Positions 4,251-11,800 of a stretch of 64,000 bases of DNA are shown here, piece by piece; position 1 is the first letter of the stretch, and each line of letters starts with the position of its first letter. The stretch is taken from assembly GCA_030141605.1 (NCBI GenBank), contig JAQGDQ010000172.1, forward strand, positions 381,695-445,694, written 5' to 3'. The position numbers were made by a program, and so were the translations under genes. Source of the stretch: Tubiluchus corallicola (taxonomy: Eukaryota > Animalia > Priapulida). The notes under the pieces were generated by a model, which had not been told where the DNA came from, did not search any database, and saw only the letters and a list, made by a program, of their open reading frames with translations.

Positions 4251-5663
4251 ACTGCCTACTCTAACTATACACAAAGCAGTACATAAAAATAAATTCGAAA
4301 TCAGTACAGTAATATAATATTACTACGCTCTCATTATACATACCGTACATTGAAAATAATAATAATCATGCTAAGGAACAGTGAATGATGCATAATAATA
4401 ATTATTATTATTAAACTGACAACAATATTTAAAACAATTGGCAAACCTATTTACACAAATGCATTTTACGTAAAGAAGCCTATGGTGTGAATTAGTTGAC
4501 TTAATAAAGCGACTAAGTAAGTTATAATAAATACCTACATATTTACACTGTATGCATGAACAATAAATAAATGAATACATACAAAGTAAAGTAAAAATAA
4601 ATGTATGTTGTAAATACGACTATAAATCAGATTATATAACTATAAGTGTAACAAATCGATAATGTTTTGATTAACATTAAGTGATGCATTGTTTTATTTA
4701 TTGTGCTGTTTGCCATTAACTTCATCAGTTATATATATCACCCTGTTCTGTTGACTAGAGTAGAGAAAATAATTTCATACGTTTGAAAACTTAGAAAAGA
4801 AACAAATTACCTGTAAAGAATACACATTGCACTGTATATTCTATAAAACAAATATAATACGAACAATTTATCTCGGTGTATTGCTCGGTGATCATAAATA
4901 ATTGGCTAATTTATTTTGAAATTAAGGAGAATATAATATCAATGCTCTTTTACAGAATTTATTTTAAATGCTTAACTTTGCTGTGTTCGTCTCGTGAGAA
5001 TTATCTTTTGTGACACGGAAAGTTTAAATTTCAAACGAGGTGCAACAATATAGCCGAATTCTGTTAATAGTATAATACATAGTTCTTTCATGAAGTATTC
5101 ATGAATAAAAAATACGACCTGTCTATACAAATATTTTCGCAATCTAATATGTAGTCTATCATTACTTAAAAAACTGCGTAAAGACAGTAATTTGACTAGA
5201 AAGTAGCTTTGGTGATTATTGTGCAGAAATGCATTATTTAAAGTAATTTAACAAAATAACAACTTAATTTAAAAGTTAAATTGCGTGATGGTATAAAACT
5301 TTACAATTTATCACACGATAATAATTGCCAGCAATGATGCCTGAAATTCAATGTATTAATATCTAATTAATAAATGTTTCTATTACTTAAATATAGATCT
5401 TATACACAAGGTACCTATATTACGGCGCATCTTCAACTTTGTACTTACTAAATGTGTAAAGGTGGTACCTATAAGCATATAATTTTACCTCATAATTGGT
5501 AGCCCCACAACCACAGAAATAAGCCACAGGGATCATTATAGCTATTACTATATAAATTATCGATTCTCATAACACATGTATACAATATAACCCATATGTT
5601 CGTCAATATTACAGATTCTGTATCAAATTAACAGGAAAGTATCCATAGATATATCTGATTACT

Positions 5664-5835
5664 TCATCTGCTATAGCTGCGGCTACGGCTTCGGCTATAC
5701 CATGGTGTTATTGAACGGCTACGACTGCGTGAGTATGATGCTGACGTCCATGACCCATATGGGCTCCAACTGCTCTCATCATCTGAAGGGGTTGGGGGCG
5801 TTTCTCTTCGGTAGGGCACAGGTCTCTTCCTTGCA
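5664..5835 (-). CDS. Srrm234: Terminal exon: second half of eMIC (S-ARKRPVPYRR) plus RS tail, TGA stop
   Basis: Acceptor TTCTAATTCTAG|T GCA AGG AAG AGA CCT GTG CCC TAC; corresponds to ORF 5664..5852. Confidence 0.92.
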
Positions 5836-8800
5836 CTAGAATTAGAAACCAATAACTCTGCATTAACTCACACTACAAAACACAGAACAAATCTGGACTA
5901 AGAGTGTTTTTAAAACTTTATAGTTTAAACTGCAATAACGAAAATATGGCTATAGAGACTCTGACTAGGACTCTACCGATTTTAGATGCGAATGAAATAA
6001 ATAATGAAAAAAATACATCATTATTATGGTCTTCTGTATGTTTTCTTTTTTCTATTAAAATAACAACTTTACTTAAACCCTAAAAGCAAAGCATTAAAAA
6101 AACATCCAGGCTTCTCGACTGCAAACATATAGTCTTCATCATTGGACTGTTTTGTGTTAGAAGCCATGTAGGTTTATATAGGCTAATTGCTTAGAGTAAG
6201 TGTACATATGACTAGAAGCCCATTGATGAGGTGTAAACAATGCAGATACAGCATTTAGACAGAAAGTACAATGGTACTATAAAAATAAAGATAATTGAGA
6301 TTGAGTTACCTTGCATATCGAGACAGGGCGCATTATTGTGTACTGATAGACTTTCTTCCTTTAAATAAGAGATCATACTTCTGCCGCTGAACAAACTCGT
6401 GACTGCAGTCATTTCAGTACTGTCTATGCTAGAGCTAGAAATGACTGTGATCTCTTAATTAAAGAACGTCTGTCAATGTACAGCAACAACCCCTCCTTTA
6501 ATGTTCAAGGTAGTTCAACCATCTTATCTTTGTTTTCATAATACCCCTGTACTTACTCTAAATAGTTGTTATATCTACTTATTTACATACCTACCTCATC
6601 AATTGGCTACTAATTATGCATAAACTTACTGTAAGCAGTTAGGCCTATATAGACCTTCATGTCACACAAAAGAGTCCACTGCCAGCTTTTTGCAGTCGAA
6701 ACTTTTGGACGTTTTTTGTGCTTTGCTTGCTTTTCTTTGAGTGTTTTGCAATGTTGTTACTTTAAAAAAAATATTCATTCACTGTCTGTTTACTGGTTTT
6801 CCTTTTTTACCTGAAACTGATAGACAGCAGTATGTTGAAATGTCTTTGTGTCTTTCAAATCTGTTTACTTGTACACCCAATTTTCATAAGAAACGCAAAC
6901 ATATATATGTGCAATTACATCTAGCAATATCATGAAATCCACATGCAGTTATAGCAACATAGCGACAAACTAAGTTTTACTGATAGTCTGTCTAAATATT
7001 ATCTGTAAACTACAATGTTAGTGTGTTATTGTAGACTAAACTGGCGACATTTGCAGAAATTGCATATAATTATTAGTAGGCTACCATATTGTAAATGACA
7101 GCATATAACTAACCTTAAGTAATAATTTTGAAATGGTAAGTGCACATTGAATAGCACTCAACGGGTTTGCTATTTGTAGTTAAGTGCTATTACAGTATTA
7201 GTCACTTTATTAGTGTTTTAGTCGCGATAAATTAATTTTAGTTATTAATTCTTATTACATATATTTAATTAAAATATTACTGCTCGTATATGCCTCATTG
7301 TATTGCTTGCGTATAGGCTAGGTAAATCTGTAAAAAAAACAATTTTTACGTTGAAAAAATAAGTAATAACTTTTGTTATAACGAGAAGAAAATCAAAATT
7401 TTCCTCATTATATTGTAATCTACAGTTCGTAATAATTTTTATGCAAACCTGGTGATTCTTCTTCTGGATTTGAAAGACGGTGAAACTCTTTTGCGTAGAG
7501 GGCGTCGCTTTCTTGGACTAGTTGAACGACTGCAAGTTGCTGAACGAGATTGCCTGGCCCTAGATGCTGATCTTGACCTTGACATCCTAGCTCGTGACCT
7601 TGACCTTGACGAAGAGTGATGACTACTTATTTGTGACCTGCAAATTCACCAAACCACTGACATTACAATTTTTGCTTTCTGTGTCACCTTTTGTTAAAGA
7701 TGTTTTTTTCTGTGAAATCTGGCACCTGACGATTAAAAAAATTGATAATTTGTGCAGAAGATTTATTAGAGATGTTCATTGGGATAAACTTTTGGAGAGG
7801 TTATAAAAATAAAAATAGCAAGATTTTACTTACTGAAACTTTGACTGCTTTGACATTGAAACTTTGACTCAAAAATAAGAGCATCATTTAGCAGTTAATC
7901 AGCAAAAAGGATGTGAAATGGAGAGGGAAGAAAAATAACAAAAAGTACAGGAGGAAATTTAGAAAGAGAGAGAGAGAAAGAGAGAGAGATGATAATACTG
8001 AATGCTCAAATCATGCCCAATGTGGTCAGAATCAGATGCACAACCTCAATTATAGCAAAACACACAGTATGCTCTAATTTTAAATAACTATTTCATTCGT
8101 ACATTAGAAAAACATTATTAAAACACAGCTTAAATTAGTTAACACAATATTTTTGACGTGGTCGTCATTTTGATTTTAATGAATTCTCATTGTTTTATTT
8201 TTGTAGGAATTGCACTTAGCAATGAAATCACTACTTGTAGTATTTTTTCGACAAGTGACCGTAGGTCAAAGATCTGCCAATCTCCTGTCAACTTATACCA
8301 TTCATTTCACCCTATCGAGGCTTTCCTTTGATACACTAGAAGCTAGCGTCGTTTGATGCTAAAGCATTTGTCTCCCCGAACCCTGCTTTGCCCCCTAGTT
8401 GGGTCACACGACAACCCGTTTTGCTGAAATTTACACCGTTCAATTCGTCTCATTGAAACTTTTCATTTTATCTCCTGCAAGCTATTGTCGATTTACATCT
8501 GAGCCATTTCCGTCCTCACCTCCAAATTTTGGTTTTTGCCCTCTAGCGGAAAGTACTCCAATATCTACGTGCCCATATTCAGCCATGCGCAAGACCTTGA
8601 TCCAATTTAGTCATATGCTAAAAATTGTAGCAATAGCTCAAAAACTTTAGGAGCAGATAGAACCTAGCGAACCTATCCCGTTCGCTCTGCAACGTTTCAC
8701 CCGGCATTGTCGGGTCACTACCTACATAATTCTTTTAACTTAAGGAGTGCGCCCTGTGAGTTTTGCGTCCCTAGCCTTTTACTGCTGCTTGGCAATTTTT

Positions 8801-11800
8801 TAAAACCCTGGGGTGCGCATTTACCCCCAGGTACCTAAATACTTGTGAAAAAAATAAAAAATATTCTGAAATACCTGAAAGGAAGAGTTGAATCACAATC
8901 GTAAAATTGACCTTCGTCTATTGACATTAACCCCTTGATTAGATGTCAAAGGTCAACCTATTGCTGCCCTTCTCCCGTCCAGAACTACCCTCCCTGTGAG
9001 TTTTGCAAATTTAGAATGCAAGGCTAATGAGCGAAATGTTTGTGGTGTGTAAAAGTTAAATAACTGTATGAGATTCAAGAAGATTTTTTTAGCAAAACTT
9101 TAATTATACCTCGAGCGAGATCTTGAGCGACTCCAGGTTTTTGATTTCGATTTTGCTGCTCTCACTGTGTGAGGTGGCGACTGTGATCTTGATACACTCC
9201 TGCTCCGCGGCTGTAGCTTATAGGCAACTGGAAGAGGAGGCGGTGAATTACTCGGTGATTTCGCCTCCTTCATTTCTACTAACGGCCTAGGAGAGATATC
9301 TAGAAGCGGGGATGCCAGAAAGGTAAAGGGAGAATCCCAACCGTTTACCTTTTCGTTTCGAGATGACGTATTTGATAAAGGAGGCGCATTTCTTGCATCT
9401 AAAGGTATTTTTAGTTTGCTTGGTGTGATGGACCGTGTACTTCTTGCTGAAGCTGTTGAAGACCTCGAAGAGTCTGATGCAAATCGAGACCTCATTAACT
9501 GACGTATTTTACTGCTCGAGGTACTGGAAGTAGACCTAGAGGAACGCGACCTTGATCTGGACCTTGACTTTGATCTTGAATTTGATCTTAATATTGGTTT
9601 AAGTTTAGGGCTTGAGCTTAATATTGAACGTGATCTGGAATGCATTCGTGGAGATTTTCTCTTATACTTTGCTTTCTGGACTGTTGCAGTTAAGTTTGTC
9701 AAAGTCTTTCTCTTTTCTCCAGAAACTTGTAAAAGTGGCGAATTACTCTGAAAAATATATTATGTAGTCGTAAATGCTGATACAGACATCAGGAGCTGAT
9801 ACAACAAGGTTTCCAAAACGAAAAGTAACAGAACTTACCAACAAATGCTGTAACCATACCACTATTATACCATACAAAGCCAATAAGTAGGGTCATACCA
9901 AATTATAGCGGAAAAGTTGGAATTATATAAATATAATGACATGTCACAATGATGAAATCCAGATTCATTTTGAGGTATTTCTTCAGCATGCCTCAGAACA
10001 TCAACATAATAAACCTTTCCAGCGATTGATGATGATCGTGAAAGGGTCAACGGCTAAGTGTACCAAACAACTTATTCGTGTACACTTGAAACGCCTCGCA
10101 ACCCATGCTATTGTAACAGTAACAGTTTTAACAGTTACATAGAACCTTACCTAGTTCATTTTTTCTTATTCACAAGCAAGATCCTACTAGTAAGTCACTC
10201 TACTCACAGACTAATGAATAATTAAGTAAAGTCCACATAAAACAACGGAAGTTTACTGAACTGATGTGCTTTACCCCTATGGCCACATGTCACGTGGCGG
10301 TTGTAGTTAAGACCGCTTGTGGTACACTCAACCTTTGACCTACAGCAACTGCGCGTGTGAAAAGGCTTATTTAATTTCTACTGCACTGTTCCTTTTGAAA
10401 CACCCAGTATAATACATAATGAAAATATTCATGTAGCATGTACCTGTCTAGAATTTGAAACGCCACATTTTCCATTTTCAGTCTTGACGTCTTTTTCTAT
10501 TCCATCAAATTAATGTTCAAGTAAGTTTTACATTAACACAGCCTACCGTGAAAAGGTCACGGAGTCGTAACATAATGCTCTATTTAGCAAATTCGCTATC
10601 GTGACTAAGTCATAAAAAGTAGTCGTTCAATGATGCTTTCTATTTCGTTATTGACGTTGATTAAACACACTATTGTGAATTATGGTATAACTTACAGAGT
10701 GCATGATAATTTACAAATTTTCATGAGTTCATCCAAATTAGCCTTGGACTAGATGTTAGACTAGATGTTGGACTAGCATTAGATGTTTAAACAGTAACAA
10801 TATATAGATAATAATAACAACAATAATGCGCTCACTAACTTTTTCAGTTGTCTTTACAGCTAAGTAGGTTTTCTGTTGAAACTCTGAACATTTTTTTTAC
10901 ATTTCTTAACAATGAAAGATTTTTTAAGCGCCATATATTGTATTCGATAAATATCATTACGTACACTATGATACAAAATTTTCGGCAGACATACTTTTGA
11001 CTTTTCCACATTATGAGAATGACTGTGATTCCTGCTTGAAGATTTCCTTTTTCTTTTAGGCTTTTTTCTTTTCAGCAACTGAAAAGCAATACAAAAAAGC
11101 ACATTATATCAGGAGCAGTGGAGTTGCCCAAGTAAATGCAGGCATAACAGTTTTTGTGAAACAGTGGACTGTTTACGTATACTGTAGTATGACTCTTGAA
11201 ATTTGTAACTTTTATTTTTTCTTGTAAAAAATGGCCGTCAAACACTGTCAACCATTTTCTCTCACTTTAGAAATAATTGAGGCATACCTTTCCATTTTCG
11301 TCTCTTTTGCGAAGATGATCACCCTCTCTTCGTCTGCGCAACTTTTTTGGCTTCTCACCTGAACCTTGACCAGTTAAACTGCTGAAACGATCAGAGAATT
11401 GATCTGGATCAGCTAACAATGCTACAAATCGCCTAATCAGTATTCACAGTATACTTGGTTTGGTGTAACACACAACAAATTACACATTTCGTCTCAAGTC
11501 ACCTCATCTCTCAGATCAGCTCACCTCATCTCACGTGCCTTACTTCATTTGACATAAACTGAAATGCTCACTCATTTTACCGTTCTTTTCTCTGTGTACT
11601 CTCACTTCACATTTTCTCCCTTATCTCACATGGCTTCACGCCTTCAATTCCGTACCTCATGATCTGATTTCGCTAGACCCCATTTTTTCTCACGATTTCA
11701 TTTCTCATCTCAACAGATAATCAACGGTTAAATTTAGGAGAAAGACGGCTCTGAAAATTTGGAGTTCAAGATTCGAACTCCGAGCCTTGCGATATCAGGT

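Follow-up and report, generated by a model that had tools for sequence, protein, structure and literature searches.

Neural microexons that depend on the eMIC of SRRM3/4 carry a published cis code. They are preceded by a long AG exclusion zone, UGC motifs lie near a very weak 3' splice site, and long UCUC-rich tracts and a CUAAY branch point are found upstream; the median eMIC exon in fly is 31 nt (PMC8797185). UGC was present between the branch point and the AG in 74-79% of targets and was important, if not strictly needed, and minigenes showed no major consistent effect of UCUC motifs (10.1101/2024.09.17.613571). Microexon inclusion responds to the dose of SRRM3/4, and too little or misplaced eMIC leads to neural defects in mice, fish and flies (in work that includes PMC8797185); the fly work indicates that eMIC dose needs tight setting (PMC8797185).

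Some eMIC-responsive exons lie within the regulators' own genes. Table S2 of PMC8797185 lists MmuEX6021616 of mouse Srrm3 (20 nt, 'eMICsens') and DmeEX0003159, 3161 and 3162 of fly Srrm234/CG7971 (30, 109 and 30 nt, 'eMICdep'). The mouse and fly calls were made by knocking down or deleting a gene that may be the host of the exon, and the table gives neither the productive isoform nor the protein impact. The exons stand there as table rows, and feedback is not discussed with them in the available part of the paper. No Srrm4 exon row was present among the 26 matches listed in the same supplement, and no srrm3 or srrm4 exon row among the matches listed in the zebrafish supplements (12 of the 18 files of PMC9303857; PMC13281805). 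A different switch is described in fly Srrm234, where a proximal last (poison) exon separates isoforms A/G from C/F; it is used outside neurons, and Elav/Fne repress it (PMC8797185).

In our literature search, which left most subscription papers, including the founding eMIC paper, outside its reach, we found no report that SRRM3/4 regulate themselves through a poison microexon and no description of how eMIC dose is capped. The literature covered, in part, also comprised 10.64898/2026.09.14.751627, PMC12626424, 10.1101/2025.04.24.650407, PMC10551640, PMC13326754, PMC12221596, PMC13542418, PMC4387716 and PMC9303857. Poison-exon feedback is already known, as are eMIC-responsive exons in Srrm genes (from the published table); reading these exons as a feedback loop appears to be undescribed in the literature searched. 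If true, a poison microexon targeted by its own regulator would give eMIC dose a simple thermostat.

We modelled the host gene of such a candidate in the window (the whole stretch of DNA analysed, 64,000 nt). On the minus strand, a 13-exon model from an ATG at ~18605 to a stop at 5664 gave an unbroken product of 613 aa, high in Ser, Arg and Lys (RS-rich). All 12 introns of this model were GT-AG, and the modelled acceptors were CAG or TAG in 13 of 13 cases. The exons next to the candidate, and the last exon, are the following:

9110 to 9747, minus strand: RS-rich coding exon of 638 nt with a phase-2 donor (GTATAA), upstream of the candidate microexon; from the gene model and two X2 contigs (see below)
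7449 to 7637, minus strand: penultimate exon of 189 nt, presumed to code for the first half of the eMIC; from the gene model, and joined to exon 9110 in an X2 contig
5664 to 5835, minus strand: last exon, coding portion only, presumed to code for the second half of the eMIC; from the gene model

We observed that the best named match in the ESM Atlas for each of the last two exons was the SRRM4/PF15230 cluster (scores of 0.83 and 0.79, which fall below the lead line of 0.9 and make these matches leads and no proof). The last junction of the gene model reads RRRITS/ARKRP, which we take to be the eMIC core motif. Pfam gave no match for any of three single exons, and no relatives of the gene's protein came from three single-exon protein searches or one phmmer run; the sole phmmer match, P0001, was an unnamed repeat protein that we judged unrelated to the gene. 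From its sequence, the 13-exon gene is likely the animal's SRRM3/4-type regulator of neural microexons. To our knowledge, SRRM4 is without the N-terminal cwf21, unlike Srrm234, SRRM2 and SRRM3. Four short cwf21-type patterns were absent from the six frames of the window (a weak test), and the 613-aa model may be a dedicated SRRM3/4-like paralogue in a genome that appears to be AT-rich and invertebrate, or upstream exons may have been missed. Two upstream exon candidates (20540-20460 and 19743-19676, minus strand) had no in-frame placement in the model; the short upstream reading frames within them are not continuous with the main one, and they are possibly 5' UTR exons. A (TC)8 repeat (20559-20544, minus strand) lies just before them. 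A 53-nt exon-like segment by a repeat (10496-10444, minus strand; TAG acceptor, CAG|GTACAT donor) was dropped from the model, since it breaks the frame.

The contigs at hand were of two kinds. The X1 contigs were DNA-like, covered introns and may stem from the very source of the window, while the X2 contigs came from what we guess to be an RNA run of a relative (same species label, tissue not given). X2 was ~89% alike in the upstream exon, where two contigs cover 9108-9423; these differed from the window at 40 positions, and 18 of the 24 differences listed were at third codon positions. One X2 contig of 193 nt runs from 9274 through the donor of exon 9110, and its last 28 letters are the start of exon 7637 (24 of 28 agreeing). 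This 28-letter end had a single match of at least 19 in the window, and six candidate exon starts scored 3-8. The contig confirmed the junction 9110 to 7637 of the gene model and established that the skipped, productive form exists in the relative. Inclusion of the microexon was seen in no read or contig among the X1 and X2 contigs, which as assemblies drop rare and NMD-prone forms, so that the skipping contig is no test of inclusion. No X2 contig lies over 7410-8540, which, with rare forms dropped in assembly, does not speak for absence. Another X2 contig aligned at 4651-4798, so that a long 3' UTR, conserved in part, is suggested to reach ~900 nt beyond the stop codon. In X1, raised depth and many contigs marked multi-copy elements at ~8260-9100 and 9960-10530, in the introns flanking exon 9747-9110. 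Metagenome scans for relatives gave 596 pattern matches, none of them confirmed, and none of the four loci from a DNA-pattern metagenome scan was similar to the window by blastn.

The candidate site sits 196 nt ahead of the penultimate exon, in the intron between exons 9747-9110 and 7637-7449. Its features, as read from the DNA letters, are:

7870 to 7997, minus strand: AG-free run, 128 nt, 79% pyrimidine, which includes the TC repeats and the TGC segment
7966 to 7989, minus strand: interrupted (TC)n repeat (7989-7980 and 7977-7966), UCUC in the pre-mRNA
7881 to 7904, minus strand: three TGC starting at 7904, 7893 and 7883, which are 35, 24 and 14 nt before the first AG (7869-7868)
7834 to 7867, minus strand: candidate poison microexon as set by the first AG (GAG), 34 nt long
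7828 to 7833, minus strand: donor GTAAGT (TCA|GTAAGT), first intron base 7833, U1 duplex of -7.2 kcal/mol
7824 to 7829, minus strand: overlapping weak donor GTAAAA (TAA|GTAAAA), four bases on from donor 7833, -4.0 kcal/mol

An earlier note on this DNA had reported TC repeats, three TGC and a GTAAGT donor at 7833 on the minus strand, and all of these were found where it had placed them. It had also described an AG-free pyrimidine tract of ~120 nt; the AG-free stretch is indeed that long, but its 128 nt count the TC repeats and the TGCs, and the pyrimidine tract ahead of the first TGC is ~85 nt. Ranked by pyrimidine content, the AG-free run came first among the 100-nt windows along the minus strand of the whole stretch (0.84). 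Depending on the AG, the exon would start at 7867 (GAG), 7861 (AAG), 7847 (AAG), 7844 (CAG) or 7838 (AAG), which gives 34, 28, 14, 11 or 5 nt; the sole CAG acceptor comes after three other AGs, and 37 nt separate it from the nearest TGC. Among the TGCs, A7899 (CTGAT) and A7895 (TTAAC) are branch-point candidates (as motif matches only), and no CTAAY branch point was found at the microexon. The candidate exon has an exact 13-nt direct repeat (copies at 7869 and 7846, 23 nt apart), and its length may have changed recently. RNA folding of 7790-8010 was no better than that of shuffles (z -0.70), and we therefore propose no structural mechanism.

When we compared the site with the published eMIC 3' splice-site features, four of the five were present and the CUAAY branch point was missing. 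The AG exclusion zone, at 128 nt, was longer than at any modelled acceptor of the gene (3-88 nt); overlapping TCTC/CTCT numbered 21 in 150 nt, against 0-3 at the gene's other acceptors; the UGC motifs lie near the 3' splice site, at the spacings given above; and this splice site is weak by its AG triplet (GAG or AAG, against CAG or TAG at every modelled acceptor). At 5-34 nt, the exon would also be very short, as eMIC microexons are. The likeness to eMIC targets that the earlier note had drawn, from UGC near the 3' splice site and UC repeats upstream, fits the cis code of PMC8797185. SRSF11, named there as binding such UC repeats, would be a putative factor at this site. Elsewhere in the gene, an 84-nt coding exon (11078-10995, minus strand) has an 88-nt AG-free zone and TGC 8, 21 and 37 nt before its AG, and is a possible second, in-frame eMIC-sensitive exon.

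By U1 pairing, donor 7833 ranked 16 of 703 intronic GT sites (15 were as good or better), and the gene's three donors without G at -1 are all of the GTRxGT type, like this one. With donor 7833, all five AG forms shift the frame and lose the presumed eMIC. The premature stop falls at 7625-7623 or 7629-7627, in the penultimate exon, and in all five forms it is 174 or 178 nt before the last junction. Under the 50-55 nt rule for NMD (PMC13542418), the predicted stop of each of these forms lies far enough ahead of that junction. The translation of the 34-nt form, with a stop before the eMIC, had been given in the same way earlier; ours agrees, with the stop in the next exon.

The reading we tentatively favour is one of negative feedback, in which the likely SRRM3/4-type regulator carries at this site, in its own pre-mRNA, a poison microexon that eMIC activates; this is possible, if somewhat short of probable. 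The signature, the donor-7833 frameshift and the position of the stop are in the sequence itself, and the skipped junction is seen in the relative; that the exon is spliced, favoured in neurons, dependent on eMIC and coupled to NMD is inferred. Without eMIC protein at a high level, the splicing machinery would pass over the weak GAG/AAG acceptor, and full-length protein would be made. In neurons, the eMIC protein would build up, be recruited at the UGC motifs and help U2AF/SF1 to define the short exon with its GTAAGT donor. A fraction of transcripts would then take in 34 nt (or 28, 14 or 11 nt), any AG choice with donor 7833 being a predicted frameshift. These transcripts would go to NMD, or would give an RS protein without eMIC, and eMIC dose would be capped.

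The alternative that survives best is that the site is an unused look-alike, in which a decayed TC microsatellite gives the AG-free run, a chance GTAAGT stands behind it, and splicing is at noise level or nil; we consider this somewhat unlikely. Microsatellites, of TC and of other kinds, are common in the window (in the transcription unit, the sense strand has two TC-repeat sites, including 7966 to 7989, and no GA repeats), the first acceptor is a GAG, 11 loose pseudo-microexons were found in the 14 introns of the gene examined, the 13-nt internal repeat suggests unstable sequence, and the X2 contig of the relative skips the site. However, beyond the TC repeat the pyrimidine run goes on for ~90 nt (67 of 91 nt are C or T). 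Of 7,100 AGs, 1.3% had three TGC within 40 nt and 1.2% had GTAAGT within 35 nt. Real tracts that reached 80 nt with 70% pyrimidine or more numbered 11, and only the candidate's own had a donor behind it. The candidate alone among the loose pseudo-microexons combined pyrimidine content above 0.7 with three TGC. Four loose microexon-like spots on the minus strand (12358-12337, 17625-17619, 9861-9839 and 19970-19943, of 22, 7, 23 and 28 nt) have GTRAG donors and lower pyrimidine, with TGC at 19970-19943 alone.

We also estimated how often the combination arises, using a composite scan (AG-free run, pyrimidine content, TGC and a donor within 35 nt) over 128 kb (both strands). At two stricter settings the candidate site was the only one found, and two looser settings gave 5 and 7 sites. 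Markov sequences of order 3 and order 6 (6.0 Mb each) contained 0 composites when the strict setting was applied; the next looser one gave 14 and 16, with an expectation at the looser setting of ~0.03 per 12.8 kb of the gene's introns; these figures are to be read with thresholds chosen with the site in view and with Markov models that under-produce microsatellites. The candidate site is more than chance would readily give, and not beyond chance.

We regard it as quite unlikely that the site is a real poison exon with a different control, one that is spliced in outside neurons, or in precursors, so that eMIC stays off, and that PTB- or ELAV-type proteins repress in neurons. The fly Srrm234 poison exon, skipped in neurons through Elav/Fne (PMC8797185), is a model for it, the UCUU/CUCU tracts are PTB motifs, and the skipping X2 contig fits. 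The fly exon, however, lies between two eMIC exons, a role better suited to another exon of this gene:

7206 to 7327, minus strand: candidate proximal alternative last exon, predicted from sequence only, with a U-rich CAG acceptor, a stop after three codons and AATAAA at 7211

In addition, the Elav motif TTTNTTT occurs 0 times in the 193 nt upstream of the candidate microexon and 2 times in the 196 nt downstream, and the weak GAG acceptor would make a poor default-on exon. Between the donor of the first eMIC exon and exon 7327 lie 121 nt, and use of exon 7327 would cost the protein the second half of its presumed eMIC; read-through from the penultimate exon into the intron would also meet a stop after three codons. 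In its predicted form, exon 7327 is a closer match to the fly Srrm234 proximal exon than the candidate microexon is. With exon 7327 in the place of the known fly switch, the gene may have both that switch and a microexon brake.

A third reading is an in-frame neural microexon spliced at donor 7829 (15 nt from the CAG, or 18, 9 or 3 nt), which would add a few residues to the RS region and leave the eMIC intact. With this donor, four of the six AGs would give stop-free exons of 18, 15, 9 and 3 nt; the earlier statement that every usable AG gives a non-3n exon thus stands for donor 7833 and fails for donor 7829, though the latter is a weak site. Most eMIC microexons are frame-preserving, and two of the three fly self-target exons are 30 nt. 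The GTAAAA, however, falls below all 13 modelled coding-exon donors (U1 duplexes of -4.2 to -10.7 kcal/mol, one of these donors having later been left out of the gene model) and overlaps the stronger GTAAGT, and we give this reading little chance. About as little chance is left to a 164-nt pyrimidine-rich poison cassette (CAG before 7997, CTGAC branch point at 8026, donor 7833) with the tract exonic, whose CAG and CTGAC resemble the gene's ordinary acceptors and whose own stop would lie 250 nt before the last junction, but whose CAG has no pyrimidine tract ahead and a GAG 7 nt upstream, and which leaves the TGC cluster unexplained.

We favour the eMIC-activated poison microexon because the composite is unique in 128 kb and rare in simulation, because four of the five eMIC features are present, because donor 7833 fits the gene's pattern and all five AGs give non-3n forms positioned for NMD, and because of the mouse and fly precedents, the tight eMIC dose in fly and the same logic in SR proteins. 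Against it are the GAG at the first AG, where the gene otherwise uses CAG or TAG, the missing CUAAY and the X2 contig that joins 9110 to 7637; the 15 other GTs that pair with U1 as well or better, the 10 other loose pseudo-microexons and the TC microsatellites elsewhere in the window; and a gene identity drawn from Atlas scores below 0.9 and a presumed core motif, with precedents from knockdown or deletion of host genes. As a candidate, the site is a real, well-formed feature of the sequence. The eMIC-responsive exons of mouse Srrm3 and fly Srrm234 make self-targeting plausible, and also less new.

Compared with SRRM3/4 (eMIC)-dependent neural microexons, the candidate shares the long AG exclusion zone, the UCUC tract, UGC by a weak 3' splice site and shortness. 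It differs in that most of these microexons keep the frame, which the candidate would break, and in its lack of CUAAY. Like the mouse Srrm3 and fly Srrm234 exons, it is a short exon within the regulator's own gene; the 20-nt and 109-nt ones are also non-3n, and the fly eMIC-dependent exons lie 5' of the eMIC exons by coordinates, as the candidate does. Inclusion was measured for those exons, whereas the candidate is known from sequence, and the place of the mouse exon relative to the eMIC exons is not in the table. With the fly Srrm234 proximal exon, it would share a post-transcriptional removal of the eMIC near the 3' end of the gene, but that exon is found between the two eMIC exons, and the candidate is placed in the preceding intron, with its predicted activation in neurons. 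Conservation is a mark of SR poison exons. As in the AS-NMD poison exons of SR proteins, a splicing activator would favour inclusion, within its own transcript, of an exon that brings in a PTC (PMC13542418), the difference being that the candidate is a microexon read through the eMIC code. More broadly, eMIC regulators across bilaterians could cap their own dose via a frameshifting microexon under their own eMIC code, an undescribed feedback loop on the neural microexon programme of which the candidate, the mouse Srrm3 exon of 20 nt and the fly Srrm234 exon of 109 nt would be parallel or homologous cases, here in a cwf21-less paralogue that keeps the proximal last exon; this wider comparison we consider unlikely as a whole, and offer it as a conjecture.
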